Made by a program: the position numbers and the translations under genes
Virus record (IMG/VR): IMGVR_UViG_3300035128_000056
Location: 1 to 64,000 of that record
From: a virus
DNA length: 64,000 nucleotides
Direction: 5' to 3' (one strand)
Shown here: positions 2,600-41,298 of the stretch, one piece after another
How positions within the stretch are numbered: position 1 is the first letter of the stretch
How the letters are laid out: each line of letters opens with the position of its first letter
Notes under the pieces: generated by a model
Databases searched by the model: none
Told to the model about the DNA's origin: nothing
Seen by the model: the letters and a program-made list of their open reading frames with translations, nothing else

Positions 2600-2641
2600 T
2601 TGTTTACTCCTTCCGGCACGCAACCTGCATCCACGGTCACT

Positions 2642-3665: not shown

Positions 3666-3737
3666 CCACCACACCCACCCCATCCCGCCGGTACCCGTTC
3701 GCTCGGGGCCGGCTTTCGGGGTAGGAGAACACGAACC

Positions 3738-4712: not shown

Positions 4713-4918
4713 CCCGCTGCACCGTCCTGAGATCGGAACGCACCGCACCGCGCCCCGGCTTCTGCCACGGCTGGCGGCTCGTGATGCCGGCTTGCGAAAG
4801 GCACTCGGCTGCAGCTGTGCCACCGGTCTCGGTGGCGTGCCGACGGCAGTGCTGCGGTAGGCATCCGGAGCGCGACTTGCGGCGAGGTGAGCGGGCCGTG
4901 GCTAGGTGGGATTGGTGA
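4709..4918 (+). CDS. Hypothetical Arg/Cys-rich small protein
   Basis: 69 aa. ATGA overlap upstream and TGATG overlap downstream, high GC3. Composition is odd, so the call rests on coupling. Confidence 0.4.
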   Translation: MTRCTVLRSERTAPRPGFCHGWRLVMPACERHSAAAVPPVSVACRRQCCGRHPERDLRRGERAVARWDW

Positions 4919-5451
4919 TGATCGCAGCGCTATACGTGGCCAAAGGTGGCGTCTACTTCGACCCTGAGCTGACCGACGTTGATCCATGGGACGAGGATCG
5001 CGATGCGCGACTGTACCATGGTCCGTGGCCTGTTGTTGCACACCCGCCATGCGGAGCTTACTCGAAGCTCGCGAGTCTCTATCAGCGAGACGATGCCGAT
5101 TGCGCCGTGCGCGCTGTCGCCCAGGTGCGCGAGTTCGGCGGGGTGCTTGAGCACCCTGCACACTCGCAGCTATGGCGCGTCGAAGGGATTGAGCTACCGA
5201 AGCCAGGTGATTTGCCGGATCGGTTTGGTGGGACGACAACCGAGGTAACACAGGTCGAGTGGGGGCACGTGGCTCGCAAGCGCACCTGGCTCTATTGCAT
5301 GAGGACCGCACCAGTACCGCCGCCACCGTTCCCGGGAAGAGAGCCGACGCACTGGTGTTCGGGGTTCAGGCCTGGCGGCGGGCGAAAGCACAACTACAAG
5401 CGAACCGGCTGCGCGGTCCCGCCAGGGATCAAGGTCTGCTCTCGGCAGTAG
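4918..5451 (+). CDS. Hypothetical protein with C5-cytosine-methyltransferase-like motif order (PPC / EHP / RKR)
   Basis: Start moved to ATG 4918 (TGATG overlap). VVAHPPCGAYS resembles motif IV (PCQ), VLEHPA motif VI (ENV), HVARKRTWLY motif VIII (QxRxR). At 177 aa it is too short for a full enzyme with a target-recognition domain. Confidence 0.35.
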   Translation: MIAALYVAKGGVYFDPELTDVDPWDEDRDARLYHGPWPVVAHPPCGAYSKLASLYQRDDADCAVRAVAQVREFGGVLEHPAHSQLWRVEGIELPKPGDLPDRFGGTTTEVTQVEWGHVARKRTWLYCMRTAPVPPPPFPGREPTHWCSGFRPGGGRKHNYKRTGCAVPPGIKVCSRQ

Positions 5452-5502
5452 CGCAACCGCACCCCGCTCCCCTTCCGAGACATGCTGCTAGACCTGGCGC
5501 GC

Positions 5503-6129
5503 TCAGTTGCGCGCTAGCTGCATCCGCCTCAGCCGATACATCCGCGCCCTGGCTCGAGCGCCGTCGTTTGGCCGCCCTTCCCAGGCGCAGTCTACCGACC
5601 TGTACCCGGCGAATGCTCCAGCCAGTTTCCCGCCTGGGTGCCTCCCATCGCAGCGTTTGAGCGCCCCGAGGAAGCGCTTTCTGGCACAGACAGCAAACGC
5701 ATCTAGCGCCGCCTTGGAACCGCGCCGGTGGCCCCATCCTGAGCGGCAGGCGGTGACTTTCAACTGCCAGTAGGATCGAGACCTGCCACGGTCGCAGTGC
5801 CCGGCACCATCGGGGATGCCGTCCGGGTAGTGGCAGCCAGAGGCTACGTACTCAGCAAACGCACTCTCGGCCCCGCCGATTGCCAGCAGCGCAGCGGCTT
5901 CCTGCGGTGTCCGCGACGCACGGTCTATCGCGTCGGCTGCCGCATCCAGCCTGGCTGACTGCTCGTCGGGCGTCTCTTCGTCGAACACAGAGCGCGGCGT
6001 GTGCTCGAGCACGACTCGGATTCGATCGCGCCATGGCTCTCGCTCTTCAGCCTCGACATTACTGGCCCGCCCGCAGCAGTAGCAAACGATGGCGACGAGC
6101 AGCAGCGCGCAGATAGGTCCATCTCGCAT
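5503..6129 (-). CDS. Secreted or lipo-protein, lytic-transglycosylase-like (tentative)
   Basis: Start at MRDGPICALLLVAIVCYCC (ATG 6129, signal-like). LLAIGGAESAFAEYV (Glu-Ser) and RSYWQLK resemble SLT motifs I/II. Convergent with the plus-strand operon. Confidence 0.4.
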   Translation of the reverse strand: MRDGPICALLLVAIVCYCCGRASNVEAEEREPWRDRIRVVLEHTPRSVFDEETPDEQSARLDAAADAIDRASRTPQEAAALLAIGGAESAFAEYVASGCHYPDGIPDGAGHCDRGRSRSYWQLKVTACRSGWGHRRGSKAALDAFAVCARKRFLGALKRCDGRHPGGKLAGAFAGYRSVDCAWEGRPNDGARARARMYRLRRMQLARN

Positions 6130-6391
6130 GGTTGGTACCGTGCACACCCTGGGCATGGTTTGCAAGCGGCAACCTCGCGCCACCAAATGCTTCCGTCAAA
6201 GGCTCGGTAGATGTAGCGCGGCACTGGGAATCTCCCCAGCGGGGCCGACGAGTAACACCAATCGCGGCGTCTTTGCTCTCGTCAGTCGCTCCCCCGCTGG
6301 CCGGCACGAACTCTGCGCCGAAGCGCAATCCACACCTGTGGCTGATCCGTGTTGTTCCGTGGGCTTGCGAAATGCCCGGAGTTTTCGCGAA

Positions 6392-6410
6392 ATGAACGCC
6401 TAGCGTTCAT
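6392..6410 (-). terminator. Hairpin downstream of the protease gene (ATGAACGC-cta-GCGTTCAT), next to palindrome TTTCGCGAAA (6382-6391)
   Basis: 8-bp inverted repeat with a 3-nt loop beginning 5 nt after the stop at 6415. On the minus strand it is followed by TTTCGCGAAAA. No long U-tract. Confidence 0.35.
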
Positions 6411-6414
6411 GCGT

Positions 6415-7284
6415 TCATTCGGCAGCGCACGCCTCCACCCAATCGAGCACCGCGGGCACCGACGTATTCACTCCTGGGAATCCCGGCCGACCACAGCCTC
6501 GCCCGAAGCTCACGATCCCGAGCTGCTTGCCGTCGCGCACCAGCGGCCCCCCGCTGTCCCCGTAGCAGGCATCGAGATCCTTGCCACCGGCGCAGAGCAT
6601 CGTGTCGTCGAGCGCCAGCGGGTAGGCCTGCCAGCACTGCGCCCACGGCACCAGCGGTAGCTCAGCTTGCAACAGCACCGACGACCCAGAGCCGCTCTCA
6701 GACGTCCGCCCCCAGCCCAGCACCAGAGCGGTCCCGTCGTCTGGCGCGACCCGGGCAAGCTCAATAGGTGGCACACCGACAGGATCGGCGAGAATCAGCA
6801 CGGCGACGTCGTGCCCGCTGGTCGTGCTCGTCCACCTCCAGTGGTTGCGCGTCTCCGTGATCCCGATGCGCCGCCCCCCGCTGGTCAGATCCTGGGTTCC
6901 GACGAGCAACGTGTCCGCGGACGGGTCCACCTGACAGTGCGCCGCGGTCAACGCCGCGCGCTCGCCGATCACGGTTGCGGCGCAAAACTGGTGCCCGCCG
7001 ATCATGAGCGCCGCAATCCACGGAGCAGCGCCAGGCGGCGCCGGAGTCCCACCGACGACGCGCGAGACGACCTGCCGTTGGACGTCGCTGCGCCCACTGG
7101 GGAGGTAGCGGCACTCGGTCATTCCACCGGTACCGCCAGTGCTCATAGCTCCACCAGTGGCCAGCGCGCCGCCTGTGCTCGAGCCACCGGTTGCAGCGGG
7201 CGGCGGTGGGTCAGGAATTTTGCACGTGGCCGCCAGCAGTAGAGGGGCGATGGCGAGCAACGCCAGCCAGGTCCAGCGATTCAT
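6415..7284 (-). CDS. Trypsin-like (S1) serine protease lipoprotein
   Basis: Start at MNRWTWLALLAIAPLLLAATC (ATG 7284, GGAGG RBS, lipobox LAATC). Gly/Thr-rich linker, then VVGG..., TAAHC (His), DVAVLIL (Asp), GDSGGPL (Ser). Confidence 0.8.
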   Translation of the reverse strand: MNRWTWLALLAIAPLLLAATCKIPDPPPPAATGGSSTGGALATGGAMSTGGTGGMTECRYLPSGRSDVQRQVVSRVVGGTPAPPGAAPWIAALMIGGHQFCAATVIGERAALTAAHCQVDPSADTLLVGTQDLTSGGRRIGITETRNHWRWTSTTSGHDVAVLILADPVGVPPIELARVAPDDGTALVLGWGRTSESGSGSSVLLQAELPLVPWAQCWQAYPLALDDTMLCAGGKDLDACYGDSGGPLVRDGKQLGIVSFGRGCGRPGFPGVNTSVPAVLDWVEACAAE

Positions 7285-7450
7285 CGAATGGCCTCCACCC
7301 GCTCCACCTCGGTGTAACCGCCGCACCCGTCCGGTACTAGCCGCGTCATCACGATGGTATCGCTGCGCACATCCGGATGGGGAACTGTTGGCCTGGTCCA
7401 CACTGGATTGCACAGCGGACACGGAATCGACGTGCAGTAGTGCTTTGAAA

Positions 7451-7741
7451 TCACAGCAGCCCCTCATCACGAGCGACAGCCACGGCCGCGTCAACTGCGT
7501 CAGCCGGATCCGCCGAGCGTTGCATCAGCGCAGCATCCCAGGCGTCGAACACCTCGGGGAATCCGCAGAGCCACGACGCCGTCTGTTCTAGCGGCCAGCC
7601 ATACTCGACTGCCGCCTCCTCGACGAGCTCGTGCTCAGCCAGAGCTAGCGCGCAGACCGAGTCCGCGCCATCGATGACCGGGCGCACTGCTGCACATCCG
7701 CTCAACAGCGCGGCGACGAGAACTAGCTTGATGGTGTTCAT
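7451..7741 (-). CDS. Small lipoprotein
   Basis: 96 aa. MNTIKLVLVAALLSGC lipobox. Strong RBS (aggaggagagagaagtcATG). Confidence 0.6.
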   Translation of the reverse strand: MNTIKLVLVAALLSGCAAVRPVIDGADSVCALALAEHELVEEAAVEYGWPLEQTASWLCGFPEVFDAWDAALMQRSADPADAVDAAVAVARDEGLL

Positions 7742-7904
7742 GACTTCTCTCTCCTCCTGAAGTACAGGCTACCGCACATCTCGCACGGAGGCTCCGGAGA
7801 CCAGATTTCTCCAGCCATTGGGTACGGTCCCTTGGTGCGCGACCAGCTATGGCCACACCTACAACACGTGTAATGAAACGTCTTCACAGAAGCAGTGTAG
7901 CCAC

Positions 7905-8411
7905 TCACGCCGCCGGCGGCAACTCGTCATCGGTGACAGGTGGTTTGCCTGACGGCTTCGCGTTGGCTGCAGCGGCCGCCTTCTCGATCGCGCGCTTGAC
8001 CACCCGCTTCGCAATCGCCTTCTGCCGAGAGTCCAGAATCGAATCGATGACAGCTCCGCCGCCGCCCATCGCCTCGACGCCAACGTACAGCGCGAGCAAC
8101 TGGCCTAGGAACACCTGAGCAAACTCGGCCCAGGTCCCGCCGGCGGTGAGTCCAACTGCCGCAGTGGTCAGCGCCGACACAGCTGGCGGCAGCAGTCGCT
8201 TCACCGCAGGGTGCAGCGAGTCCCAAACGTGCGGCTTCGCTCGGCGCCACGCCTGAATCGCGAGCAGCATCACGGCCCCGCCAACGATCGACCACTGGCC
8301 CCACGATGCGAAGATGAGCGACACGAGCTCGTCGGGTGGCGTCGTTCCGTCGGATGCGAGCGCGACGGCGGACCAAAGGAGGATTGCGATTACTGTGATG
8401 ATTCTGATCAT
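7905..8411 (-). CDS. Multi-pass membrane protein, holin candidate
   Basis: 168 aa. N-terminal hydrophobic segment plus about three further hydrophobic stretches (WSIVGGAVMLLAIQAW, AVSALTTAAVGLTAGG, FAQVFLGQLLALYVGV) and a charged Lys/Ala-rich tail. Follows the fibre/esterase genes. Confidence 0.35.
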   Translation of the reverse strand: MIRIITVIAILLWSAVALASDGTTPPDELVSLIFASWGQWSIVGGAVMLLAIQAWRRAKPHVWDSLHPAVKRLLPPAVSALTTAAVGLTAGGTWAEFAQVFLGQLLALYVGVEAMGGGGAVIDSILDSRQKAIAKRVVKRAIEKAAAAANAKPSGKPPVTDDELPPAA

Positions 8412-8423
8412 GGTTCTCTCTCA

Positions 8424-9971
8424 TTACGGTGCGCTCGGTAGCACAACTGTCGGCCGTGGCGCCGTCGCGAGCGCAGCTACACCGCCCGGCGTGGCCACGA
8501 CATCGACCGCGTTCTCGCCATCGCGCATTGCTTCTGTCGGCGTAATCCCGAGCGTCCACGTCCGATCGACGCCAACAGCCGTCCCAGCGGGAACACCGTT
8601 GATCGTCACCTCCACACGCTCATTCGCAGGCCAGCAGCGGCCAGTGATCTCACCATATTCTCCAACACGTAGTGGGTTCGTCTCGAAGTCGGTGGCGAGG
8701 TTGCATGCATGCTGACCGTGTGTCGCGATAGCCTCGGTTGCGGCATCAATCACGCGCCCCTGTTCACTCAGCCCGACCGGATCCGTGCGATGAACGCCGT
8801 CGCCAAGCTCGCCAGCTGCCGTCGCTTCTCTACCGCGTTTCAGCAGTCCGCGTGTGTCGATGAATAGCACGCTTGGAACAACCGGCAGCACCTCATCGTA
8901 GATGGCATTACAGTACGATTTCTGCCCCGCAGGAGGATCCGCGTTGCCTGAGTATGCCGTGCGAATCACAACACGGGCGGTCGGCACAGCTGCGCGCACG
9001 AGTCCGATAAGCTCGATCATGTGCTCACCAAAGCCTGTTGGATCATCGTTGGTCCCGATGTCGATCGTCAGATGCAACGGACTGTTGCCAACGATCCGCG
9101 GCAGCACCTCGCTCCAAAACGCTGCTGGCACGACGTCTGTGTTGAGCCAATGATTGCTCAGCGACGCTCCGCCGACACTTGGGTTATAGATCACGACACC
9201 AGGATCATCGCGTCCGAAAATCACCGGGGGCAACGCGACGAGTTCGCCGTTCACCGACATCGCCTCTGGCTCGGCAACCCAGTTGAAGTTCACGTTTCCA
9301 GACGTGTGCGACCACCCGGCAGCAACCTGCACAGAGATCTCGGCGTAGGAGCCTTCCTCGAGTGACCCATAGTCGTAGTACGCAGAGATTGGTGAGTCGT
9401 CGGACGGCGTCGAGTCGTTGTCGGTGCGCAACCACAGCGCGAGTCCGGGCGCAGACTCCACCTTGCCTGTTACCCCGTAGACGACCCCGCGCAACGTGCA
9501 CGCCTCGCCCTCGAGCTGCGCGAAGAAGTTCGGGTAGTCGTCTTTTGAAAGCGCCGGCTGAGTCAGTCGGCAGCTCCACTCGTCCGACGGCAGCGTAGTC
9601 CCAAGAAACTCACCGACCGACCCCAGACAATCCCAGTCGACCGGCGTGACCTTCGTGCTTGTCTGCGAAACATTCTGTGCAACCGCAATGTTCTCGACGT
9701 CGAAATTCGTGTTCGAGAACACAAGCCCTGGGTGAGTAGACGCGCCAGCGAAATCAACGAACGCAGTCGCCGCCAGCGCCGCGTCCGCCATTCGTAGCGA
9801 TTTACTCGCAACGTCGCGCGAGTCACAGATCCTTAGATCGATGATTCGTCGCGTCGGGCTGCCCTGCTCCTGTGCGATCTGCGAAGGTGAGTAGTGCTCC
9901 GGCCCCGGCGATGCGCCACAGGTCCGAGCTACGCACATCGCTAAGCCAATCATCATGCTTAGTCTCATCAC
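8424..9971 (-). CDS. Secreted SGNH/GDSL-family hydrolase (esterase/deacetylase), probably tail-associated
   Basis: 515 aa with signal-like N-terminus. SGNH blocks VGGASLSN, IDIGTNDD and GDGVHRTD (DxxH). Start overlaps the stop of the LamG-like gene (GTGA at 9971 or ATG at 9968). Confidence 0.6.
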   Translation of the reverse strand: MMRLSMMIGLAMCVARTCGASPGPEHYSPSQIAQEQGSPTRRIIDLRICDSRDVASKSLRMADAALAATAFVDFAGASTHPGLVFSNTNFDVENIAVAQNVSQTSTKVTPVDWDCLGSVGEFLGTTLPSDEWSCRLTQPALSKDDYPNFFAQLEGEACTLRGVVYGVTGKVESAPGLALWLRTDNDSTPSDDSPISAYYDYGSLEEGSYAEISVQVAAGWSHTSGNVNFNWVAEPEAMSVNGELVALPPVIFGRDDPGVVIYNPSVGGASLSNHWLNTDVVPAAFWSEVLPRIVGNSPLHLTIDIGTNDDPTGFGEHMIELIGLVRAAVPTARVVIRTAYSGNADPPAGQKSYCNAIYDEVLPVVPSVLFIDTRGLLKRGREATAAGELGDGVHRTDPVGLSEQGRVIDAATEAIATHGQHACNLATDFETNPLRVGEYGEITGRCWPANERVEVTINGVPAGTAVGVDRTWTLGITPTEAMRDGENAVDVVATPGGVAALATAPRPTVVLPSAP

Positions 9972-10702
9972 GTATACTCGTTGGTCAAAAAGCCCACAAG
10001 CTGTGCGCGCGTGTCCGCGTCGAGCACGCCCTCGTAGAGATCGACCTCGTTGATTTCGCCGCTAATGCCGCGCGCAATCGCCCCGTTATTTCCGCTGCCA
10101 ATCGCGAGCCCAGCCGATACCTCTCCTAGACCGTCGTAAGCGTCGCTTGACGCGATTGCGTCCTCGCCGTCGTACAGCACAGCATCACCCGTCGCGGCGT
10201 CCAGCGTGAGGATCAGAACGCGGAACGAGCCATCTGCTGCAACAGCCGACGAGACGTTACCGGCACCCGGAGCAGTAAACCCAAACAAACCGTTATCCGT
10301 GCGAATACGCCAAACCTTCGCAGCCGCGATGCTCTCAAAAATGATGCGCGCGCCCGATGCTGCATTGATTGAGCACGCAACCGCGAGTGTGTGCGAATTG
10401 TGATCTTCAAGTCCAGTCTGAGCTGCTACCTTGAGATAATGAACAACCGTGCTCCCGTCCCCCTCGAACGTTGGTGTGCTTGCGGGCAGTCGCGGTTGGT
10501 TCGCGGCAGGCGTGTTGCCCAGCACGACACCCTCAACGATGCCGGTCCACGTTGCGACCGTCGTCTCCCCACCGTCGTCACCCTCAACGATGCCAGCGCT
10601 TTGAGGCCAGCGCTCAATCAAGCCTTCTGTCGGCTGCTCGTAGCTTGGCGCGGAGCCACCCCTCATCAACCCAACCGCAATCCCGATTCCGATCCCAGGC
10701 AT
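9968..10702 (-). CDS. LamG/concanavalin-like domain protein in fibre module
   Basis: 244 aa. C-terminus ISGEINEVDLYEGVLDADTRAQLVGFL resembles the LamG_3 signature. Follows the tail-fibre gene by 4 nt. Confidence 0.4.
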   Translation of the reverse strand: MPGIGIGIAVGLMRGGSAPSYEQPTEGLIERWPQSAGIVEGDDGGETTVATWTGIVEGVVLGNTPAANQPRLPASTPTFEGDGSTVVHYLKVAAQTGLEDHNSHTLAVACSINAASGARIIFESIAAAKVWRIRTDNGLFGFTAPGAGNVSSAVAADGSFRVLILTLDAATGDAVLYDGEDAIASSDAYDGLGEVSAGLAIGSGNNGAIARGISGEINEVDLYEGVLDADTRAQLVGFLTNEYT

Positions 10703-10706: not shown

Positions 10707-11867
10707 TCACCATGTCCACTGCGCCGACGACTCGGCTTGCCAGGCGCCGCCGATGCGTCGGAACGTAATGGCGTGTGGTGTACCGGTGGTGTACACCACG
10801 ACTGGGTCAGATCCCCCTGCCGGTTTCGATGCGCCCAGCAGGGTGACCGCGTATGAATTATCGAGGGACATGAACGTGAACCGCAGCCCGTCGGCTACCC
10901 CAGTCGGCAGGGTGAAGTCTCGATCGTTGCTCAACACTCCGCTGGGCAAGACCTGGTAGTCCCCGTCGGCGTAGTCGAGCGTGTGGTTGGAGTCGGTCGA
11001 GATGGAGAAGAGCTTGCGGGCGTTGTTGAAAAGGGCGTTACCCTGGCAATCTACAGCCTTCGATCCATCCGCCATCCCAAGCTTTGCGTTGCCCGTGCTG
11101 GGGTCGATCTTGGCCAGCAGTCTCTCAGTACCAACAGCATCCTTTCCCTGGATACTGTTCCCATTCGAAAGGTTCAGCCCCGCGGTTGTCGGAGCGTTCC
11201 CGCCAATGTCGATGTGTCCGGTACCAAACAGGATGCCTGTGGCAAGCTCCCACGCGCTGCTTGAGTTGTTCCATTGTGCTGCCTGGCCTGTAGCGGATCC
11301 TGCTGGTAGCAGACCAACACTGAACAGTCGCAGGTTGGCTTTGTACGATCCGATCCAGGCATCTACAGAGTAGAACTGAGTCGTCTCTCCGGAAGCAATG
11401 TCGTCGAACCCGCTTCCGCTCAGGATGCGCAGTGCGGTGCTCTCATCCCGCATCGTCGTGCCATCTGCTGGCAGGACGTATGATGCGCCGTTCTTGATTC
11501 CGTTGTTGCCGGTAGCACGCAGCAAGAACTTCCCCCACGGCACACCGGTGAAGTCGAGTTGGGGTGGGGATATCCCAGCGTAGTAGAACCGCTCTGCAGT
11601 CGCATCAGCCGTCCATCCGCTCGGCGTGCTCATCCCCGTCGGATAGTCCCAGATCTCCCACAGACAATACGTGATCCCGGTCGTATCCTCGAGTGTCAGG
11701 TCGACGGTGTCTCCGTCCACGATTGTGATGCCACCGGACTGGTTCGCCCCGCCATTTACGGAAGCGAGGATCTTGACGTATGGGGTGGTTGGCATTGGCT
11801 TGGTATCGCGGACGTTGAGGCTCCGCGCTGCCGTTGATTGGGTTGTGCGCTGCTTCCCGGACCCCAA
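10707..11867 (-). CDS. Tail fibre protein
   Basis: 386 aa, Gly/Thr/Asn-rich, in the fibre position. The track start at 11867 is a TTG; an ATG alternative (MPTTPYVKIL) is at 11795. Confidence 0.55.
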   Translation of the reverse strand: MGSGKQRTTQSTAARSLNVRDTKPMPTTPYVKILASVNGGANQSGGITIVDGDTVDLTLEDTTGITYCLWEIWDYPTGMSTPSGWTADATAERFYYAGISPPQLDFTGVPWGKFLLRATGNNGIKNGASYVLPADGTTMRDESTALRILSGSGFDDIASGETTQFYSVDAWIGSYKANLRLFSVGLLPAGSATGQAAQWNNSSSAWELATGILFGTGHIDIGGNAPTTAGLNLSNGNSIQGKDAVGTERLLAKIDPSTGNAKLGMADGSKAVDCQGNALFNNARKLFSISTDSNHTLDYADGDYQVLPSGVLSNDRDFTLPTGVADGLRFTFMSLDNSYAVTLLGASKPAGGSDPVVVYTTGTPHAITFRRIGGAWQAESSAQWTW

Positions 11868-11890
11868 CCCCCGCCTTCTGGTCTACTCCT

Positions 11891-11910
11891 CCTCAGGCTG
11901 TCTCCTGAGG
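11891..11910. other. 7-bp stem hairpin CCTCAGG-ctgtct-CCTGAGG just upstream of the fibre gene
   Basis: Perfect inverted repeat. On the minus strand it is followed directly by AGGAG, so it could modulate translation or act as an RNA end. No U-tract. Confidence 0.3.
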
Positions 11911-12402
11911 TTCGACGAGGACGTGGGTCTCGGCAGTCCCGAGTGACTTGGTAAGCTAGCCCTGCTACAGCACCGGGGGGTGAGCGTCAGGAGCAGTGGT
12001 CAGTGACCAGATTTGCGGTGTGCTCTGAGGCAGCTCTGTGTGGATACGCCACCAGCTCCGACGAGTCTGGTCTGCATGCTGCGCGGGTTGGGGTCTCCGG
12101 TTAACCGGGATGTTGCGCTCATCGCGCCCGATGTCGGCTCGGTGCGCATGCAGTTGACGCAGGCCAACCATCTGGGGATCCCTCCCCTTCACGAATCCCT
12201 GGGGAATCGAGGCCGAGTGAACGGCACCATGTCGATTGGCGGACGACACACCAAAGTACCTACTTGACAATCGGCGCCGACGCAACCATCATCTCTGGTG
12301 AGTTCTCTGGCGGACGACTCCGAAGCCCGGTGGGTCAAAACGACCTTCCGGGTTTCGTTATTTCGCCGCATCGCTGGAACCATGTTCAGTTGACCGGCCG
12401 GA

Positions 12403-13305
12403 ATGCGAGGTTACCTTAGCAGTATGAGAGCGCTTCTTCTGGCGGTGTTTGTTGTTGGGTGCGGGTCCGACGCAGGGCAGTTTCGCGATGGTCTGGCGGA
12501 GTCCGGAGGTACCGTGGGGGCCGCTGGCGCGGATACTGGTGGCTCCCCAACTGGCGGAGATGAGTCTGGCGGGACCGGGGGAGCTTCGGCGTCTACCGGA
12601 GGCAGTCAACTGACTGGCGGCACTCCGACAGGCGGATCCGCGCCGTGCCCCGTCGGATCTGAGCGCTGCCTCTGCTACGGGAACGACACCTGCGACGCTG
12701 GGCTCACCTGCTTCTCTGGGCTATGCGTGGATGCGGGGACCGGGGGGGCTGGTAGTGGCGGTGTAGAAACCGGGGGGACCCCCACTGGAGGTATTGTTGG
12801 GACTGGCGGCGTCGAGATGACCGGCGGGTCCACAACCGGAGGAGTTGCAACCGGCGGTCAGTTCCCGATCTGTAGCCCAGGCGATACCAATTATTGCGCT
12901 TGCAACGGCGACTGGTCGAACCCGGGAGTTACGGAATGCTCCTCTGACCAGCTCTCGTGGACGGAATGTGTTTGTCCGTCTGGAACTGGCGGGGCCGGGA
13001 CTGGTGGCGCTTCTACAGGTGGCCAGCAATCATGCGACTGGGATGGAGCCGAATTGCTGCAACCCACTGGACACCAAACATTAGACGGTGACGGCTGTTA
13101 TGTGCTCGGCGAAGAAGAGAGCATCTGCGTATTTTCCTTGGAAACACCAGCCGGTTTCACCGGGTCATATGAGACAGTGGATGGCGTCAGCGGCGCAATC
13201 GTCGGACCGACAAGTGCTGACAGTTCTCAGCGAGCAAACTGCCCAGTCTTGCTCGATTTCGAAACCCCGGACGTCGTCGTCATTGTTTCATGGTCCTACG
13301 AATAG
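12403..13305 (+). CDS. Lipoprotein with Thr-Gly-Gly repeat linkers and Cys-rich modules (moron, opposite strand to the tail genes)
   Basis: 300 aa. MRALLLAVFVVGCGS lipobox (alternative ATG 12424). Repeated TGG/GGT tracts, several Cys pairs. Its stop lies 4 nt from the convergent fibre gene stop. The 3' half looks lower in GC. Confidence 0.65.
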   Translation: MRGYLSSMRALLLAVFVVGCGSDAGQFRDGLAESGGTVGAAGADTGGSPTGGDESGGTGGASASTGGSQLTGGTPTGGSAPCPVGSERCLCYGNDTCDAGLTCFSGLCVDAGTGGAGSGGVETGGTPTGGIVGTGGVEMTGGSTTGGVATGGQFPICSPGDTNYCACNGDWSNPGVTECSSDQLSWTECVCPSGTGGAGTGGASTGGQQSCDWDGAELLQPTGHQTLDGDGCYVLGEEESICVFSLETPAGFTGSYETVDGVSGAIVGPTSADSSQRANCPVLLDFETPDVVVIVSWSYE

Positions 13306-13309: not shown

Positions 13310-14152
13310 TCATGGCAGGTATGAAAGATGCCTTGTGACCCATGCCGAACCGGACCAGATCAACTCTGCTGAAAAGCAATAGCCGCTTGCTGTGCGCAAC
13401 ACTGGCCCGGCCCAACCAGTGGCAGTGATTGTTAGGTTGTATGAAGTGTCGGCATTCGTTATCGTGATGACGTCACCAGCAGCAACGCCGTTGCCGATCG
13501 TCCATGCCCTGTTTAGAGAGAACACCCCGTTCGGGTTGTGTAGGTGATCTCCACTGGTCAGGCTCAGAGATCTATTTCCATCTGTGGCATTCTCAAAGTA
13601 CCTTTGGCGGACGCGCCCCGTGCCACTGGTACTCACAGGAGCTGTCAGATCGAAGCCAGCGAACGACGGCGTGCCTGTGAAATCTGGGTCTCCAGGGAAA
13701 TCTGGATCTCCGCTGAAAACCGGGTCCCCGCTGAACGTCACTGTACCGGAGAAGGTATGGTTGCCTGACCACGTTGGTCCACCAGCCCACGTACCAGAAA
13801 TGGTTCCGCCACCAGACTGGAGTGTCCCAGCCATCGTGATCTGGGTCTGAAACGTCCACGTGCCGGTGGCTTGTGGGTTTCCAGCGACGACCCCAGTCAA
13901 GCTACCACCGTCGAAGGTCAATTCAGCACCCGACTCAATGCTCAGCGTGCCGGTGACTTCATGGTTGGTGCCGGCCATCGTAATCCCAGCACCGCCAATC
14001 TCGACTGCCGCTGCAGGCGCCCAGGTCCCGCCGTCGTCGCCGTTGATCGACTTGTAGATGCTCTCGTCGATCGACCAGAACTCGCCCTGAGTAACGATGG
14101 TTCCGGCTGCCCAAGCTCCTAGTGACCCACGAATGTACGAAAAATGTGCCAT
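13310..14152 (-). CDS. Tail fibre / fibre-like repeat protein
   Basis: 280 aa. Gly/Thr-rich with short repeats (SGDPVFSGDPDFPGDPDFTGTP). Follows the baseplate I-like gene. Confidence 0.5.
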   Translation of the reverse strand: MAHFSYIRGSLGAWAAGTIVTQGEFWSIDESIYKSINGDDGGTWAPAAAVEIGGAGITMAGTNHEVTGTLSIESGAELTFDGGSLTGVVAGNPQATGTWTFQTQITMAGTLQSGGGTISGTWAGGPTWSGNHTFSGTVTFSGDPVFSGDPDFPGDPDFTGTPSFAGFDLTAPVSTSGTGRVRQRYFENATDGNRSLSLTSGDHLHNPNGVFSLNRAWTIGNGVAAGDVITITNADTSYNLTITATGWAGPVLRTASGYCFSAELIWSGSAWVTRHLSYLP

Positions 14153-32692: not shown

Positions 32693-34048
32693 CTACGCGG
32701 CTTCTTTGACGTCTTCGCCGCTTCCGTCTCCGCCGCCTTCTGGCGAGGAGTCGCGTGGTTCGCAGAGTTCGTCTTCATCGGTAGGATCCGGGCAGCCGAT
32801 CTGATCTCGCACCCATCCCTGCGGGATTTTCACGCCGGCAGCGACGAGCAAGCTGACAACCTTGGCCATTATCTCGAGGTCGACACCGTCCTCGGTGTGG
32901 AACCTGAGAGTGCCGCGGCGCATTGAGTCGCCGTGGTTGAATGCGTAGTAGGGTTCGACCAGGCAGAGGTTGAGCGACTCCGCGATGCCGCGGGCGTCCC
33001 CCTCGTTGATCATGTGGAGAATGTTCTCGTGGATGTCACCGAGCGACCGGGCGCCTCGACTGCCTGCCTCGGTGGTGAGTGTCTGGCCGAGGACCGCCTT
33101 CGAAATCTCTTGGCCGAAGAACTCGCAGAGCTCACGGTGAACGCTCTGCAGATTCGATCCTGTGGACTTGGGCCACGAGACTTTCAGATCGACTGTTTCC
33201 GGGTAGGCGGCCCCACCCGATGCGGTCAGCGCCTCGATCGCCTCCTCAGCGAACGCGCGATCCTTCCCGTCTGATCCCTTCTTGTACTGGGCGAGCATCC
33301 AGGGCTTCCAGCCCATCTCGCCAGCAAGCGCCCAGTCCCTGACACCCCAGTTACGGTATACGAGATTCCAGACGATGGTGCGGGCCAGCCCCTCGCGGAC
33401 TGCCACGTCACCATTTACGCGGGGGCGGAAACAGATGAAGTTTCCTGGACCGTACTCCTCGAACAGGTCGATCCCCTTCGACTCCGGATCTTGGCCGGCC
33501 TCGACGAAGACGATCGATCCGTCGGTTCGCTTGAACCCGAAGCGGCGGCAGCTGATCGGTTTTGCCAGGATCGGAACTTCGCGCCCGGCGAGTTCTCCGG
33601 TCAGCTTGTATTCCCAAGCGATCTCCGCCCAGGCCCCGGTGGGGAAGAGATTACCTTCGCCGGCCAGATGTGCGAGCAGGACGTGCCAGCCACCGCAGGC
33701 GCGTAGCGCCTTCTCGCAGAGCAGCGCCTCGGCTTTCTCGTTCTCGTCGGCGTCCTCTGGCGGGTCGATCGACCACTTCAGACTGGCGAGAGAGAGCTCA
33801 CGGACACCCAACACCGCTTGGGTGTGGCCGTCCTTTTGGCGCCCCTCGTGGACCAGATCGACGAGTCGAGCCGGTCGGCCCACGTCCGCCTCGCGAATGA
33901 TGTTCGCGATCTGGTTGGGCATCAGCCCGCCGCCGATGCGGCTGAACTGGTTGTAGAGTTGGACTTCTGGGATCAGCAGAGCCCGCAGGGTGTTCGCGGC
34001 GCCTACCGCCACGCCTGCTGCGCGCTGTACGATGGAGAGAAAGCTCAC
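32693..34048 (-). CDS. Portal protein (Mu gp29/DUF935-like)
   Basis: 451 aa upstream of the protease-scaffold gene. Size and order are typical. Acidic C-terminus. Confidence 0.6.
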   Translation of the reverse strand: MSFLSIVQRAAGVAVGAANTLRALLIPEVQLYNQFSRIGGGLMPNQIANIIREADVGRPARLVDLVHEGRQKDGHTQAVLGVRELSLASLKWSIDPPEDADENEKAEALLCEKALRACGGWHVLLAHLAGEGNLFPTGAWAEIAWEYKLTGELAGREVPILAKPISCRRFGFKRTDGSIVFVEAGQDPESKGIDLFEEYGPGNFICFRPRVNGDVAVREGLARTIVWNLVYRNWGVRDWALAGEMGWKPWMLAQYKKGSDGKDRAFAEEAIEALTASGGAAYPETVDLKVSWPKSTGSNLQSVHRELCEFFGQEISKAVLGQTLTTEAGSRGARSLGDIHENILHMINEGDARGIAESLNLCLVEPYYAFNHGDSMRRGTLRFHTEDGVDLEIMAKVVSLLVAAGVKIPQGWVRDQIGCPDPTDEDELCEPRDSSPEGGGDGSGEDVKEAA

Positions 34049-34063: not shown

Positions 34064-34675
34064 TCAGTCGAGGATCGCAACCCCAACATCGGTTGTGTCT
34101 GCGTAGATGCGGTACGGGCTGATTGGGGCGACCAGGTATGCCTGCACTGGGAAGTTGTCGGTGACACCGTCTGGCCACCCCACCTTCACCGTTCCGGTGT
34201 CAACGGCCATGAACGGGAAGCGCTGGTCGACGAGATGCCGACGCGGGCACGCGATGCCGCTGAACCCAAGCTCCATCAGCCCGCCGCCACCCAGTTGAGC
34301 CGGGACGTAAACCGAGGTGAGCGTATCGAGCGGCGTTGTGCCGATGATGGTTTCGTTTCCGCCGGCCTGGGTTAGCAGGGTCTGCACCGTTACTTCAACC
34401 CCGCCACGGGTGCCGGTCCAGATGATCGGGTCCGTGGTGTTGAAGGTCGCAGGGGATGCATTGGTGGTGACGCTCGGGTAGCGCGCCACCTTCATCTTCA
34501 GGTCGGTGACGGGGCCCGGGTTGGCCAGCGCCCCGTCGAGCGTGGCAACGCTGTACGTAGTTGCCGATGTCGGAGACGCAAACGACGCCTTGAAAGCGTC
34601 CGTGTCAGCCAGGGCAGCCGCGGTCGCAAACGTCGTACTGCGCCTGAGCGCCAGCGCTAGGTCAACACCGTACAT
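34064..34675 (-). CDS. Hypothetical protein, second gene of the cassette between terL and portal
   Basis: 203 aa, Thr/Ala/Gly-rich. Lies 10 nt downstream of the fibre-like gene. Confidence 0.5.
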   Translation of the reverse strand: MYGVDLALALRRSTTFATAAALADTDAFKASFASPTSATTYSVATLDGALANPGPVTDLKMKVARYPSVTTNASPATFNTTDPIIWTGTRGGVEVTVQTLLTQAGGNETIIGTTPLDTLTSVYVPAQLGGGGLMELGFSGIACPRRHLVDQRFPFMAVDTGTVKVGWPDGVTDNFPVQAYLVAPISPYRIYADTTDVGVAILD

Positions 34676-34685: not shown

Positions 34686-35864
34686 TCAGGCGAGAACGTG
34701 GAACCAAACAGTGACGTCGAGCTCACCAGCATCCAAATCAGCTAGATCGTGGCTTCCGTCCGGGGTGAACGTGATAGTCAATTGTTCAGACGAAAAGCTG
34801 CCAACCGGGTGTACTCCGGCGGTGCTGAACGCTAGCTTCCCTGTCGCTGCCCCAGTGAAAACGTCGTGCCCGTCACCGATCGCATCAGCGTCAGTTCCGC
34901 CAACGTCGATGGTCACCGCCGTAGCTCCTCCACCACTGAACAGCGTAGTGATATCAACCTCGCTCGCTACCACTACAGCATTTGCTGGCAGAGCGGCTCC
35001 GATATTTAGAGCTTGTGCAACCCCATCAGACGATTCAGTGAGATCAGCCTGAGTAACGTTCAGCGTCCGCTTCTGGAAGATAGCGGCAGTGTTCGTGTTG
35101 ATCAGCGCGCGGTTTTCCGCGAGCGCTGCCTCGACTGTCGTCCCAGTGATTAGCGTCCCGGAGTCTTCGATGCCGACCAGTGAAGCGCCCTCCCCATTGG
35201 AGGTAGACGCAAGCAGCGTCTGCAGCGCCGTCCCAGTCGTAGTCGTCGCGATAGCCGAGAAGGTCAGTGCGGTCGTGTTGAGTACGATCGCGTCGTCCGT
35301 CGTGAGCATGAACAGGGTGTTCCCGTTCGCTGTACCCTCGTTTACAGTGATGAGGACTCCGGCGCGCATCTGGTCGCTCTGGGAGTGCGTAGATGCACGA
35401 ACCATCGACCACTTTGCGTCGGCGGCTCCGATGCCGGTCAGTACGTAGAGACCGTTGTTGGCACCAGTGGACTCGTTCTTCACCAGCACCAGCTCACCAA
35501 CGGCAAGGTCGGTTAGGCCGTCGATGCCGGTGTCATTCAGCGCTGCGTTTGCGTCGGCTGTCAGCGTGTTGCTGGTTCGAGTATTGGCTGGTAGTGCAGC
35601 AGCAGTAGCGACGCGCACACGAATCAGCGCCGACGCCTCTCCGCGCACCAGCCACTTGCCGGACCCGCTCGAAGGGGACAGCCCATCAGAGGCAGTCGAG
35701 TCATCGTCGAACTGGAAGACCTTGCCTCCAGCTACTACCACCATTCCGTCCGCGCGATACGCTGGACCCAATGCCTGCAGCGCCGCCTCGGTGGCAAATG
35801 CTCCGCCAAATCGCTCAGAAACTTCTCGCGCCGCCGCGTCGCCGTACTTGAGTGCACCTGACAT
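34686..35864 (-). CDS. Fibre/tailspike-N-terminus-like protein inserted between terL and portal; its upstream region is matched by CRISPR spacer 1
   Basis: 392 aa. LAVGELVLVKNESTGANNGLYVL and GASLVGIEDSGTLITGTTVEAALAE resemble motifs of phage fibre/tailspike proteins. AAGGA RBS 10 nt upstream of ATG 35864. Confidence 0.5.
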   Translation of the reverse strand: MSGALKYGDAAAREVSERFGGAFATEAALQALGPAYRADGMVVVAGGKVFQFDDDSTASDGLSPSSGSGKWLVRGEASALIRVRVATAAALPANTRTSNTLTADANAALNDTGIDGLTDLAVGELVLVKNESTGANNGLYVLTGIGAADAKWSMVRASTHSQSDQMRAGVLITVNEGTANGNTLFMLTTDDAIVLNTTALTFSAIATTTTGTALQTLLASTSNGEGASLVGIEDSGTLITGTTVEAALAENRALINTNTAAIFQKRTLNVTQADLTESSDGVAQALNIGAALPANAVVVASEVDITTLFSGGGATAVTIDVGGTDADAIGDGHDVFTGAATGKLAFSTAGVHPVGSFSSEQLTITFTPDGSHDLADLDAGELDVTVWFHVLA

Positions 35865-35874
35865 GGTGTCGTTT

Positions 35875-35910
35875 CCTTCGTTCGTTGAAAATACGAGCCG
35901 CCGCGCAGGC
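35875..35910 (-). other. Protospacer: exact 36/36 match to CRISPR spacer 1 (711-746)
   Basis: Plus strand CCTTCGTTCGTTGAAAATACGAGCCGCCGCGCAGGC is the exact reverse complement of spacer 1 GCCTGCGCGGCGGCTCGTATTTTCAACGAACGAAGG. On the minus strand it is flanked 5' by CACCCACCCC and 3' by AAACGACACC-ATG. Confidence 0.95.
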
Positions 35911-36006
35911 GGGGTGGGTGATGCGTGGACTCAGGTTGGAACGGCCGAGCCCACAGGAGAGCCGCTGGTCAGGGACCTGGGGAGGAGGATGGATGCAAGG
36001 AACGGA

Positions 36007-37602
36007 TCAGAATGGGGCGCGACCGTGACGGCCGGCCATGGATCTGCGAGCACGCATCGCGTCTGGCCCGAAGCGCGAATGCAGGCGCGTGTTGGCGATG
36101 AGGCGCTTGTTCGTCTCGGCGGCTCCGGAGTAGTCGACGGCGCCGCTTTCGCACGCCAGAGCCAACCCCATCGCGTTCGCATGGTCAGGGCTGCGCTTCA
36201 GGCGCTTCTTGATCGAGTCCTGTGACTCGACGCGGATCTTACCGGCTGGCGTGAGAGAGTACGTCGGCGCCACCAGTTCGCGCTCAAGCTCGTGGTTCGG
36301 CTCTAGTGCTGCCCCGTCAACCAGCCACTCCCGCAACATCCACCACATCTCGTCGCGGATTCGATCGAAGCGGTCCGTGTCGTTCGCAGACTGCGCTGAG
36401 TTGATCCCAACCACTGAGAGCCCGACTATGTCGCGCAACTCCTCGATCACACCATCGACGACGCCAGCGCCAAGCCCGCCCTCGTCGATTCCAATCACGA
36501 CCGGCTCGTTGCCTCGTCGCAACTCCTTGGCTGCACTGACGATCTCGCCCGTAACCTCGGTGGTCGGCGCCCCGTGGATCGTCCTGTGGGTCCCGCCGTA
36601 GTCGCCGCGTTTCCACGCGATTACGGTGTCATCGTCTCCGTAGCGCGCGATGTCGGCTCCGATGCAAAGCTTCCCGGATGCGGTTCCTGCCGGATCCAAT
36701 GACGGGTCTTCGCGCCAGAGTTCCAGCGCTGCCTCGAGTGCGAAAAGCGGAACGACCACGTTGGGTCCGGACTTGGGGAAGTCGCCACCAACACGGACGT
36801 CCCAGACGGGTTCCCCGGGCCCGCCGTACTCGCGCGCCATCTCCTCTGCCCAGATGGGCTCAGCGAGACCCGGTACCACAATCTCGCCAGCCAGGATGTT
36901 CGGCGACTCGAGGCTGGAGATATGAAGCAGCGCCCCTTCCTCGAACAGGTTCCGCTTGTCGTGGAACGAGTCGAAGAAGTGGCCGGTAGTAGTAGTCGGG
37001 TTCCCGGTCTCGACGAGCTTTCCGCCGCCGGCCAGGTTGCCCATGATGGCCTCGAAGACGGCGTCCTTCACGCCGCTGGCTTCGTCGACCAGGTAGAGGA
37101 CCTCCGGCGCCGAGATGCCCGAGAAGGAATCCGGGTCGTCAACGGTGAACCCGAGGATCTGCGAGCCGTTCGGAAGCAGGATGCCGGTGGATGGGTCCAG
37201 CGGGACGACTGGCAGCGCGTTGCCGCGCTGTGCCATGGAGCGGAGCTTCCTCACCTCGCGCCAGATCGTCTCCTTTACCTGCCGCGCTGTCGGATGAGTG
37301 GCAACGACTCGAACCCCCGGGCGAGTCAGTGCGAACCACCACGCGAGCAACGCGATCGAAAGAGTCTTGCCGGTCTTGTGACCGGACCTGCACGCTACAC
37401 GGCGAAACTTGGCGACCGCTCGGCAGAGGTCTGCCTGCTTCGTGTAGCCTTCGAACTCAAGACGGAGTCCAAAGAATTCCTTCGCGAAAGCAACTGGGTC
37501 GTTGCGGTATGACTCAATGGAGTCGGCCGTCCTCTTCTGCTTCCTGACCTTCCGCGCCGCCTCCGCCCAACGCGGCGACAATGCGATCGAATGTTTCGTC
37601 AT
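36007..37602 (-). CDS. terL: Terminase large subunit
   Basis: 531 aa. Walker A context RSGHKTGKTLSIALLAWWF. Follows the small-subunit gene, with an 89-nt overlap if ATG 37602 is used. Confidence 0.8.
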   Translation of the reverse strand: MTKHSIALSPRWAEAARKVRKQKRTADSIESYRNDPVAFAKEFFGLRLEFEGYTKQADLCRAVAKFRRVACRSGHKTGKTLSIALLAWWFALTRPGVRVVATHPTARQVKETIWREVRKLRSMAQRGNALPVVPLDPSTGILLPNGSQILGFTVDDPDSFSGISAPEVLYLVDEASGVKDAVFEAIMGNLAGGGKLVETGNPTTTTGHFFDSFHDKRNLFEEGALLHISSLESPNILAGEIVVPGLAEPIWAEEMAREYGGPGEPVWDVRVGGDFPKSGPNVVVPLFALEAALELWREDPSLDPAGTASGKLCIGADIARYGDDDTVIAWKRGDYGGTHRTIHGAPTTEVTGEIVSAAKELRRGNEPVVIGIDEGGLGAGVVDGVIEELRDIVGLSVVGINSAQSANDTDRFDRIRDEMWWMLREWLVDGAALEPNHELERELVAPTYSLTPAGKIRVESQDSIKKRLKRSPDHANAMGLALACESGAVDYSGAAETNKRLIANTRLHSRFGPDAMRARRSMAGRHGRAPF

Positions 37603-39903: not shown

Positions 39904-40315
39904 CTTGGCTTGGCCACCCAGCAAGCACTTCGAGACGCTCCGCTAGACCCTTCAGCCCATTTGCCAGTTCGCTGTCCACCTGACGCAGCTCCTCAAGCTG
40001 TGGCTCCACCGTTTGCTCGATCTGCTCGGCGACTCGTTCCCGGATCCGATCGTCAATCCGGCCTAGGAACTTAGCAACGTCTCGTGCCACCTCGTCCGCC
40101 TTCGACCGGCGCATGTCCGGGCAGTGGCGGTAGACGCTCGACTCGGTAACCTGCCATGGGCTCTTGGGGTTCGGTCCGCTGCGGGTCATGATGGTGACAC
40201 CCTGGGAGCGTTCGCGACGGCGGAGCTCCCGGAGTAGGCGCCTGCCGGGGCGGGGTCCCTTCCAGCCGAGTCGACGCGCCATTTCGGACAGGGGGATTGG
40301 CTCAGTAGTGCTCAC
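39881..40315 (-). CDS. HTH DNA-binding protein with coiled-coil C-terminus
   Basis: 144 aa. GTG start with GTGA overlap. IPLSEMARRLGWKGPRPGRRLLRELRRRE is HTH-like. Confidence 0.5.
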   Translation of the reverse strand: MSTTEPIPLSEMARRLGWKGPRPGRRLLRELRRRERSQGVTIMTRSGPNPKSPWQVTESSVYRHCPDMRRSKADEVARDVAKFLGRIDDRIRERVAEQIEQTVEPQLEELRQVDSELANGLKGLAERLEVLAGWPSQVAHGSPR

Positions 40316-41106
40316 CGGCCGTCCTCCGATGCGTGGTGGTCATCGCCGTATTCGAGCGTGGGCAGGTCTCCACCAGTAGCCGGCGCGTCGCCCACCACGA
40401 AGTTCCAGATCCTTCGGGCAAGGGTCAGGAGCTCTCTCGATTGTTCGTCAGCAGCCTGGAATTGCAGCTTTCTGTTCGCCGTCGGTTTGCGGGACTGCTC
40501 ATCGATGAGGTTCGCGAACGCCTCACGATGCCGCAGGGCACTGATCTTGCGGCCACGCAGCATCGTCTTGCCGGCTGGGGTCAGGTGCCAGACCGCTACC
40601 CAGGTGTTCCCGTCGGGGGCGTAATAGCACTCCAGAGCCTCGCGACTCGCCTGGTGCACGTTCCCCACGCCTGCCAGGCGGCTCCCTACGATGAGGTCGG
40701 CGGCGTCCGGGCAGTATGACCCGCCCAGTTTCGATCGGACGCTGGAACCGGTCATGCGGGCCGTCAGCGGGCCGTGGGCTCCGGACAGGTAGCGCGCATG
40801 GTACCCGCACCCATCGCACTCCGGGCAGACCCGGTCGAGCATCGGGGGGAGGTCGGGAGCGTTGATTCCGATCCATTCAAGCATCATCCGCTGGGTCTCG
40901 GATGCTGGTCGGCGGTCTGGCTTCGACGCCACGAAACCGCGTCCGCCGCACTCGTAGCACGGCTCGGCATGGTGGGCGTAGAGCGCCGCCCGGTCGAGCT
41001 GCGCCCCAAATGTGCTCGCTTGCCCTCGGGCTCCGCCACCACCACGCATATACCCACGGATATCCGTTGCGTCGTCGGCGCTAATGAATCCCGAGCACTC
41101 ACACAT
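40312..41106 (-). CDS. Hypothetical protein with DnaJ-type CxxCxGxG zinc-finger pair
   Basis: CYECGGRG and CPECDGCG. The track start (41271) is a TTG with poor codon usage for ~55 codons, so the start was moved to ATG 41106 (alternative 41049). Confidence 0.5.
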   Translation of the reverse strand: MCECSGFISADDATDIRGYMRGGGGARGQASTFGAQLDRAALYAHHAEPCYECGGRGFVASKPDRRPASETQRMMLEWIGINAPDLPPMLDRVCPECDGCGYHARYLSGAHGPLTARMTGSSVRSKLGGSYCPDAADLIVGSRLAGVGNVHQASREALECYYAPDGNTWVAVWHLTPAGKTMLRGRKISALRHREAFANLIDEQSRKPTANRKLQFQAADEQSRELLTLARRIWNFVVGDAPATGGDLPTLEYGDDHHASEDGR

Positions 41107-41268
41107 GCCAGGCGGAAGCGAACGCTCGACCGCTTCCAGCCATCCACTACGACAATCGAATATGGCGGGGATCACGACGACACCACGATGGGCTGAACGA
41201 CACCTGAACTTGACCAATTGCTCGCCATCCGTCAGATTCCTCTCTGCAGGGTGCCGCACACCAGGCCT

Positions 41269-41298
41269 CAACGCCGCCTCCCGCCAGGGGCGGCGTTG
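41269..41298. other. 10-bp stem GC-rich hairpin CAACGCCGCC-N10-GGCGGCGTTG in a ~340-nt low-coding gap
   Basis: Perfect inverted repeat. On the plus strand it is followed by CTCGTTTC, with no clear U-tract on either strand. Confidence 0.35.

Follow-up and report, generated by a model that had tools for sequence, protein, structure and literature searches.

A Phage-Borne Cas12m Array Whose Leader-Proximal Spacer Matches the Phage's Own terL–Fibre Intergenic Region

The window analyzed here comprises the 64,000 nucleotides (nt) at positions 1 to 64,000 of the IMG/VR virus record IMGVR_UViG_3300035128_000056. Near its start, a gene for a Cas12m (type V-M) homologue is followed by a CRISPR array. 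The leader-proximal and newest spacer of this array (spacer 1, 711–746, plus strand) was identical over its whole length (36/36) to the phage's own DNA at 35875–35910 on the minus strand, ahead of a fibre-like gene. A CRISPR spacer that targets its own genome is usually a lethal accident, and a virus with a perfect self-spacer is a near-paradox, which would be resolved by the one type V family that binds DNA without cutting it. With moderate confidence, spacer 1 is regarded as a recent acquisition from the phage itself or its kin, which is strain-specific and tolerated by a binding-only effector, and not as a hard-wired switch. As a probable binding-only adaptive CRISPR system on a genome that the system itself samples, the locus is a natural test case, in which silencing of own genes, use against kin and mere tolerance are the outcomes to be told apart.

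The Self-Matching Spacer and Its Target

The CRISPR array occupied 675–1148 on the plus strand, co-directional with the effector gene, and contained seven repeats of 36 nt (starting at 675, 747, 820, 895, 981, 1040, and 1113) and six spacers of 36, 37, 39, 50, 23, and 37 nt. Repeats 1–3 were identical to each other, and repeats 4–7 were degenerate with compensatory changes in the stem. A leader of 79 nt (596–674, plus strand) extended from the effector stop codon to repeat 1. The initial annotation, made by eye from the letters of the window, had described spacer 1 as the exact reverse complement of 35875–35910, and both its coordinates and its flanks proved correct. There were no mismatches, and this was the sole other match of spacer 1 in the window at up to three mismatches. 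Moreover, one base of the adjoining repeat also matched, so that 37/37 positions were identical over 35875–35911. The expected number of chance matches was 0, and none was found in 100 shuffles; a chance or low-complexity origin of the 37/37 identity was hence ruled out. A displaced repeat-spacer unit at the target was likewise ruled out by the absence of repeat-like sequence beside the protospacer on either strand. Spacers 2–6 had no match within the window even when 30% mismatches were allowed, in agreement with the earlier inspection by eye.

The protospacer (35875–35910) lies on the minus strand, which is the non-target, coding-sense strand. The CRISPR RNA (crRNA) from spacer 1 would have the sense of the mRNA and pair with the plus (template) DNA strand, as had been reasoned before. 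The protospacer ended 10 nt before the ATG of the downstream gene. On the non-target strand, it was preceded at its 5' side by ...CACCCACCCC. All genes around the target are on the minus strand. The terL gene (large terminase subunit, 36007–37602) is upstream and is transcribed in the same direction, and it is separated by an intergenic region of 142 nt (35865–36006) from p392, a fibre-like gene of 392 amino acids (aa) directly downstream of the target (34686–35864). The next gene in the string is p203 (34064–34675), a conserved 203-aa gene of unassigned function, and further downstream is a Mu-type portal gene (32693–34048), which a polar roadblock would affect. The location of the match in the terL–p392 gap and its distance to the ATG were confirmed.

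The description of the target as a -10 and ribosome-binding region did not hold. No sigma-70-like promoter was found by a scan of the 142-nt gap, and a promoter or -10 element at the target is not supported. The TATTTT motif was instead the tail of a weak terminator-like hairpin (CCGCC-TGCGC-GGCGG) within the protospacer. The ribosome-binding site AAGGA lies at the far end of the spacer, which is trimmed in the mature guide of this family, and it is probably not covered because the guide is only 17–20 nt long. The effective target of crRNA 1 is likely the PAM-proximal part (PAM, protospacer-adjacent motif) at about 35891–35910. This part shares sequence with the GC hairpin, and its distance to the ATG downstream is at least 26 nt. 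The whole gap folded no better than shuffles (z -0.25).

The gap was compared with those of related phages. Relatives with 68–69% TerL identity had the same gene order, the additional sequence of the gap was missing from them, and in L065, the one read in detail, the gap was only 24 nt, which suggests a single late transcription unit. A closer relative, L073, whose p392 was 69% identical, had a gap of 137 nt, in which the protospacer was not kept. A 24-nt block, GCGGCTCTCCYGTGGGCTCGGCCG (35942–35965, minus strand), was also present in L073 and was unique in the window. This block (GCGGCTCTCCTGTGGGCTCGGCCG) is part of a conserved hairpin of 10–11 base pairs (bp) at 35925–35954, just upstream of the protospacer; the rest of the gap was not kept in L073. 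A role in regulation, or as an RNA element within the late operon, is possible for the 24-nt block and the hairpin.

Hundreds of p392 homologues shared a common central module. In the relatives (L063–L067 and L073), the N-terminal 80 aa or so were kept, the C-terminal part was variable, and the length ranged from 223 to 408 aa. This variability is like that of exchangeable receptor-binding or decoration modules, and the gene is located between terL and the portal gene, not in the tail module. The structural model of p392 (mean predicted local distance difference test score, 75) resembled tail-fibre, Mtd-N-terminal-domain, and collagen-repeat phage proteins with E values down to 2e-17, and its jelly-roll parts resembled capsid decoration proteins. 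The fibre-like assignment made at the outset is supported by this predicted fold and its structural matches.

The Effector and Its crRNA Scaffold

The window start cuts the effector gene, of which the last 197 codons and the stop are present (2–595, plus strand). The full protein of 709 aa (P0009) was recovered via the 90%-identity cluster of the C-terminal fragment. It was encoded on a JGI contig and on a Logan contig, and its C-terminus was exactly as in the window. P0009 matched the PADLOC Cas12u1 profile with an E value of 5.6e-65 (residues 163–679, profile positions 75–532 of 533), the Cas12m chain 23vw_A of the PDB with 7.7e-37 (residues 225–675, with the RuvC-I motif aligned), and UnCas12m4a with 1.2e-11. 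The C-terminal fragment alone as query matched Cas12m2 at 4.8e-5. The RuvC triad consisted of D390, E569, and D666, and a CxxC...CxxC zinc ribbon was present. D390 stands in AVAVDVGW, which was aligned to TAAIDLGW of 23vw; it lies upstream of the window, in L061, and the window fragment holds the glutamate (LVLEG) and the second aspartate (DQDANAA). The check proposed in the initial annotation, to obtain the full nuclease and look for the RuvC-I aspartate, thus gave a complete protein with this residue in place. Among effector homologues, 866 representatives were found at E ≤ 1e-30, mostly of about 600 aa. The nearest (P0131) was 60% identical, and its contig stops where the array begins. Judged by its sequence, the effector is a Cas12m homologue of type V-M (formerly V-U1) with an intact D-E-D triad.

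Tested members of Cas12m with D-E-D, H-D-D, or N-D-D triads bind double-stranded DNA (dsDNA), and all fail to cut it (PMC11013384). Their binding is PAM-dependent with T- or C-rich 5' PAMs, blocks transcription at promoters and in coding regions, and protects against phages (PMC11013384). Binding without cutting was also reported in PMC10442227 and bioRxiv 10.64898/2026.03.26.714355. By this homology, the effector of the window probably binds dsDNA in a PAM-dependent way without cutting. The RuvC residues visible in the window had earlier been read as intact, which was correct, and a nuclease-dead state had on this ground not been claimed. Since D-E-D members of Cas12m bind only, the intact triad is no argument for cleavage and no bar to a binder. 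The self-match is accordingly not expected to be lethal, because the family binds dsDNA without cutting, and the paradox raised by the normal lethality of perfect self-targeting is removed.

The structure of the repeat was evaluated by folding and covariation. The repeat folded into a 6-bp stem (CCCGAC/GUCGGG) followed by AC, and AAGGC upstream of this stem was able to pair with GCCUU in the loop as a pseudoknot. The degenerate repeats 4 and 6 carried the compensatory changes CGCGAU/AUCGCG. In an alignment of repeats from 14 arrays beside homologous effectors, 91% of cells were paired, compared with 23–45% when the partner was slid, and 0/500 shuffles were as high. Seven of the 10 pairs changed on both sides across the 14 repeats. 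As predicted from this covariation, the repeat is a two-stem pseudoknot handle as described for Cas12m. Within several kb of the array, a search for an anti-repeat, as would be expected for a trans-activating crRNA (tracrRNA), gave none longer than 10 nt. A Cas12m crRNA consists of about 33 nt of repeat and about 17 nt of guide (bioRxiv 10.64898/2026.03.26.714355), and the guide comprises about 17–20 nt of the spacer (PMC11013384; bioRxiv 10.64898/2026.03.26.714355).

A mechanism can be proposed on this basis. The array would be read from the leader and processed into crRNAs with a pseudoknotted repeat handle and about 17–20 nt of spacer. The guide of crRNA 1 would base-pair within about 35891–35910 of the plus (template) strand, where the 5' flank on the non-target strand is CCC. 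If CCC licenses binding, a stable R-loop and a protein roadblock would form between terL and p392 without cleavage of the genome, and the roadblock would dampen transcription from terL into p392, p203, the portal gene, and the head genes. New spacers would be added at the leader end by host adaptation machinery in trans, sampling abundant replicating phage or kin DNA. Acquisition is presumably in trans because the phage region examined has no cas1 or cas2. No Cas1, Cas2, or Cas4 Pfam family was found among the genes annotated in the 10 kb to each side of the effector, nor among the larger open reading frames (ORFs) of the window that were scanned. Self-spacers would be purged in nuclease systems and would be able to persist with a binding-only effector. 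If the fibre gene is affected at all, this would be a by-product on which selection may act.

Array Turnover, Flanks, and Independent Assemblies

The turnover of the array was explored by comparison with a sister strain, which is represented by L059, a JGI contig of 1,831 nt that stems from a different sample. The flanking bases that it shares with the window (1,009 in all) covered the effector C-terminus, the leader (100% identical), and the downstream flank, and every one of them was identical. The effector of this strain differed at 3 aa further upstream. Window spacers 3–6 were kept at the far end of its array, and three spacers (A, B, and C) replaced spacers 1 and 2. Acquisition is polarized at the leader end, because the old far-end spacers were common and the leader-end spacers were private to each strain. 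One extra repeat-spacer unit was present in the sister array between window spacers 4 and 5 (L059: 1253–1327, versus window 981), which is an internal gain or loss on top of the leader-end turnover. Further array variants were sought through spurious ORFs across the array, and only L059 itself was returned.

The private spacers of the sister strain also pointed to this phage lineage. Spacer B matched 40956–40994 on the minus strand at 39/39 positions, inside a 319-aa ORF (40312–41271), and spacer A matched 13462–13496 on the minus strand at 33/35, inside a 280-aa ORF after the baseplate genes; both were in the sense of the coding strand. The two mismatches of spacer A were 6 nt apart, consistent with synonymous third-position changes, and this spacing argues that its donor was a related, non-identical genome. 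A match of spacer C (26/36 to 10197–10232) was discounted, since shuffles also reached 26. Counted over both strains, five spacers are the newest, and judged by these matches at least three of them derive from DNA of this phage lineage. The guide-target pair itself was not conserved: the sister strain lacked spacer 1, and the protospacer was not kept in L073. Of the two options offered in the initial annotation, tolerated self-targeting is favoured by these observations, and a dedicated switch is weakened.

The flanks of the matched protospacers were compared. The 5' flank of protospacer 1 on the non-target strand is CCCC (35911–35914, minus strand), with CCC at -3 to -1 as a candidate C-type PAM, whereas the array's own flank is GAC. 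At -3 to -1, the flanks were CCC for spacer 1, TCG for spacer B, GAT for spacer A (an imperfect copy), and TCA for a self-match in the relative L039. YCN is a candidate PAM, occurring in 3/4 matched protospacers in a small sample in which it was noticed after the fact. On the other side, 4/10 distinct spacers ended in CGA (window 711–1112 and L059: 911–1459; p about 2e-4 before correction), and the protospacers of spacers 1, A, B, and L039 had (A/G)CGA starting 1–4 nt past the 3' end. This 3'-side motif is on the wrong side for a type V PAM and may reflect the acquisition machinery. An argument from the target strand was dropped; all four good matches (4/4) were in the sense of the coding strand, which suits a Cas12a-like roadblock, but PmCas12m shows no strand preference.

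The presence of the 37-mer in two contexts was examined in independent assemblies, namely the Logan assemblies (k = 31) of SRR11696408 and SRR11696381 and contigs of JGI; the phage proteins were unchanged in other samples. In SRR11696408, the contig from the p392 side stopped at 35904 and the contig from the terL side stopped at 35882. The two contigs entered the shared 37-mer from opposite sides, and each ended after exactly k-1 = 30 nt of it. A 37-mer that is present in two contexts forces such breaks in a k = 31 de Bruijn graph. Because both contigs broke k-1 in, SRR11696408 contains the protospacer context and a second context that shares exactly 37 nt. In SRR11696381, a 34,859-nt contig began inside repeat 6 (1046), its first 10.6 kb were 100% identical to the window, and its end was expected at about 35904; the 37-mer probably occurs in two different contexts in this sample also. 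A Logan contig of 55,025 nt from this sample ended 30 nt into repeat 1. JGI contigs of 89,885 and 90,329 nt encoded the same proteins, and the former had an array as long as that of the window together with an identical p392 protein. A genome of about 90.2 kb, circular or circularly permuted, fits both the Logan lengths (55,025 + 34,859 nt) and the JGI lengths.

Alternative Readings, Known Systems, and Genome Context

Several observations weigh against a tolerated, recently acquired spacer. The array and the protospacer lie 35 kb apart, and only metagenome assembly places them on one molecule. The matched flanks CCC, TCG, and GAT gave no firm consensus, so that binding is not assured. This genotype was the main one in the assemblies of several samples, although a roadblock before the portal and head genes should cost. 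A mildly harmful accident fits this status less well than a selected function or the absence of binding. Moreover, the first spacers of three distant IMG/VR relatives matched only their own arrays, and self-derived leader spacers are hence no general property. Self-matches recur among Cas12m relatives but are not the rule. In L039, a phage-like contig with RecT, an internal spacer (11675–11713) matched the contig's own PD-(D/E)XK/DUF2800 gene (4608–4645) at 38/38. The sole mismatch was at spacer position 1, the target was 6 kb away, and the array also had duplicated spacers.

A possible, though not probable, alternative is that the self-match is silent in cis and neutral, with a flank that is no licensing PAM or a system that is not expressed in infection. 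It would account for the tolerance of a target that precedes essential genes, and it agrees with the missing 5' consensus and with the irregular spacer lengths (23–50 nt). Furthermore, the sole clear motif was on the 3' side, which suggests that the spacers were chosen by a machinery not matched to the effector. YCN at -3 to -1 in 3/4 good protospacers argues against a silent match, as do the full-length effector with all motifs, the perfect leader-end repeats, and the selection evident on the repeat structure.

It is unlikely that the array is a weapon against co-infecting relatives and that the self-match arose by the assembly merging strains, one of which has an altered target. At least two strains exist, with effectors that differ at 3 aa. 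The sister spacers match the window strain, and the mismatches of spacer A imply a related, non-identical donor. Spacers against close kin in the same population, as conflict between viruses would produce, were found in L059 (B, 39/39; A, 33/35). Reciprocal targeting of this kind has a precedent in SPV1 and SPV2 (PMC6858448), and V-M and type IV systems on mobile elements have been linked to competition between elements (PMC11656645). The carrier's own target was not altered, being 36/36 with an unchanged flank if the assembly merges no strains, and no variant protospacer allele was present in any recovered contig. Little strain mixing is indicated by the unbroken Logan contigs of 34.9 kb and 55 kb, of which the part read was 100% identical, and the 89,885-nt JGI contig pairs an array of the same length with the identical p392 protein.

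Selected self-regulation is quite unlikely. It would be a switch of the CRISPR interference (CRISPRi) type that holds down or times p392 and, by polarity, the portal and head genes; a delay of late expression or an accessory fibre kept off are possible roles. The match is perfect with a pyrimidine-rich flank (CCC), C-rich PAMs exist in the Cas12m family, and the target is bordered by a conserved element of the intergenic region on one side and by the ATG of a variable fibre-like gene on the other. In addition, the genotype was dominant in several assemblies, the relative L039 keeps a self-matching spacer deep inside its array, and a binder-type CRISPR system regulates self genes naturally, namely type IV-A acting on pilN, as cited in PMC11656645. 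These points are opposed by the absence of the pair from a sister strain with identical flanks, by the position of spacer 1 as the newest of a changing array, and by the matches of the other newest spacers to ordinary coding regions. L073 lacks the protospacer though the adjacent block is kept, and no promoter-like site was found in the gap. The guide unit of a hard-wired repressor, as in TldR or in regulatory RNAs such as CreA and tracr-L, is fixed or stand-alone and often degenerate or partial; spacer 1 was full length and flanked by two perfect repeats at the acquisition end of the array. A conserved, dedicated switch is argued against, and a young, selected switch is possible but less likely than tolerance. 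The least probable claim entertained is that the binding-only CRISPR system of a lytic phage serves this phage as a heritable self-regulator that can evolve, with self-spacers as strain-specific CRISPRi marks; if true, such marks would tune or silence late-operon and fibre genes, like phase variation of the virion surface or of late timing.

Compared with these alternatives, the reading of spacer 1 as a tolerated acquisition places the locus close to several known systems. The type V-M systems of MmCas12m2, GoCas12m, MsCas12m, and PmCas12m share with it the effector homology, 36-nt repeats, a two-stem pseudoknot, the lack of a tracrRNA, an array directly after the gene, and the lack of adaptation genes; PAM-dependent binding that blocks transcription is expected here as well. 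The D-E-D triad was as in 4/8 orthologues chosen in PMC11013384. The present protein differs in its length (709 aa versus about 600 aa), its carrier is a roughly 90-kb, virulent-looking tailed phage and not a plasmid or chromosome, and the carrier's own lineage is what its newest spacers match. Plasmids carry V-M systems more often than expected, and some prophages have them too (PMC11656645). A September 2026 preprint (bioRxiv 10.64898/2026.09.14.751636) calls MvCas12m of myxophage MV-1 the first phage Cas12m. MvCas12m likewise has a D-E-D triad and an array beside its gene, and cas1, cas2, and cas4 are absent. It has 610 aa, compared with 709 aa here, and its RuvC-II to RuvC-III spacing differs; moreover, 0/8 of its spacers had a protospacer, whereas targets were identified here in the phage's own genome. 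The locus hence supplies identifiable protospacers, which are lacking in the sole published report of a phage Cas12m. In the literature searched, no phage-borne V-M array was described whose spacers are directed at the genome of its carrier. The two strain variants show spacer acquisition without cas1 or cas2 in the regions examined, and a 709-aa Cas12m variant with candidate PAM information may be of use to tool developers.

The mini-arrays of SPV1 and SPV2 (PMC6858448) are also preceded by a leader, have spacers that match very close kin, and differ in their spacers between strains. Their carriers mutated or deleted their own target, whereas a perfect target is kept here; their arrays have no effector and rely on host nucleases, whereas this phage brings a probable binding-only effector. 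Plasmid type IV-A systems, according to PMC11656645, are likewise on a mobile element without nuclease or adaptation genes, silence by binding, and carry host-acquired spacers; IV-A3 acquires in trans, and natural self-targets are tolerated as gene repression (pilN, Pseudomonas oleovorans). The type IV-A effector is a Csf complex with DinG, in contrast to the single Cas12-type protein here, and the likeness is in mode of action only. No genes for a Csf multi-subunit effector or DinG were present in the annotated 20 kb around the effector. The type IV-A self-target described there is a host chromosomal gene, whereas here it is the element's own late operon. TldR (PMC10705468) is also a protein of the TnpB/Cas12 lineage with a guide RNA and a promoter-proximal site, and it is often on prophages. 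It has a fixed guide, a conserved target, and a dead active site, whereas an evolving array spacer, a pair that was not conserved, and an intact triad were found here.

The distribution of the system was explored in several collections. Nearly all homologous effectors fetched from IMG/VR or metagenomes had their own co-directional array directly after the gene. The other spacers had no match in L063–L067, L073, or L061. Nothing was found in INPHARED; in IMG/VR, only relatives at 34–38% identity were found and the repeat pattern was absent; the metagenome contig collection held relatives at 45% identity or less; and neither the protein nor the repeat pattern had a match in the GTDB genomes. The TerL protein was at most 33% identical to that of any GenBank phage. 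The single GenBank phage record with an effector homologue was Virus Rctr197k (KX853510), in which it is annotated as transposase-like. A Cas12m-like gene was also seen in L017 (Ga0265316_10000001, 461 kb, the size of a megaphage genome), between very large arrays at 752–8634 and 10837–13297 with more than 70 repeats of two repeat types.

Among the scanned ORFs, neither an integrase nor a repressor was identified; DnaB, a primase, and methylases were present. The region before the effector (L061: 1–10000) contained a 5'-3' exonuclease/RecT-like gene, two HNH endonucleases, a MUG113-family gene, and a small gene with a Ribosomal_L12 Pfam match; these upstream genes were all on the strand of the effector. 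Near the tail module, the window encoded a 359-aa protein (6415–7494, minus strand) with a full trypsin domain (E 9e-47), which is an unusual phage cargo.

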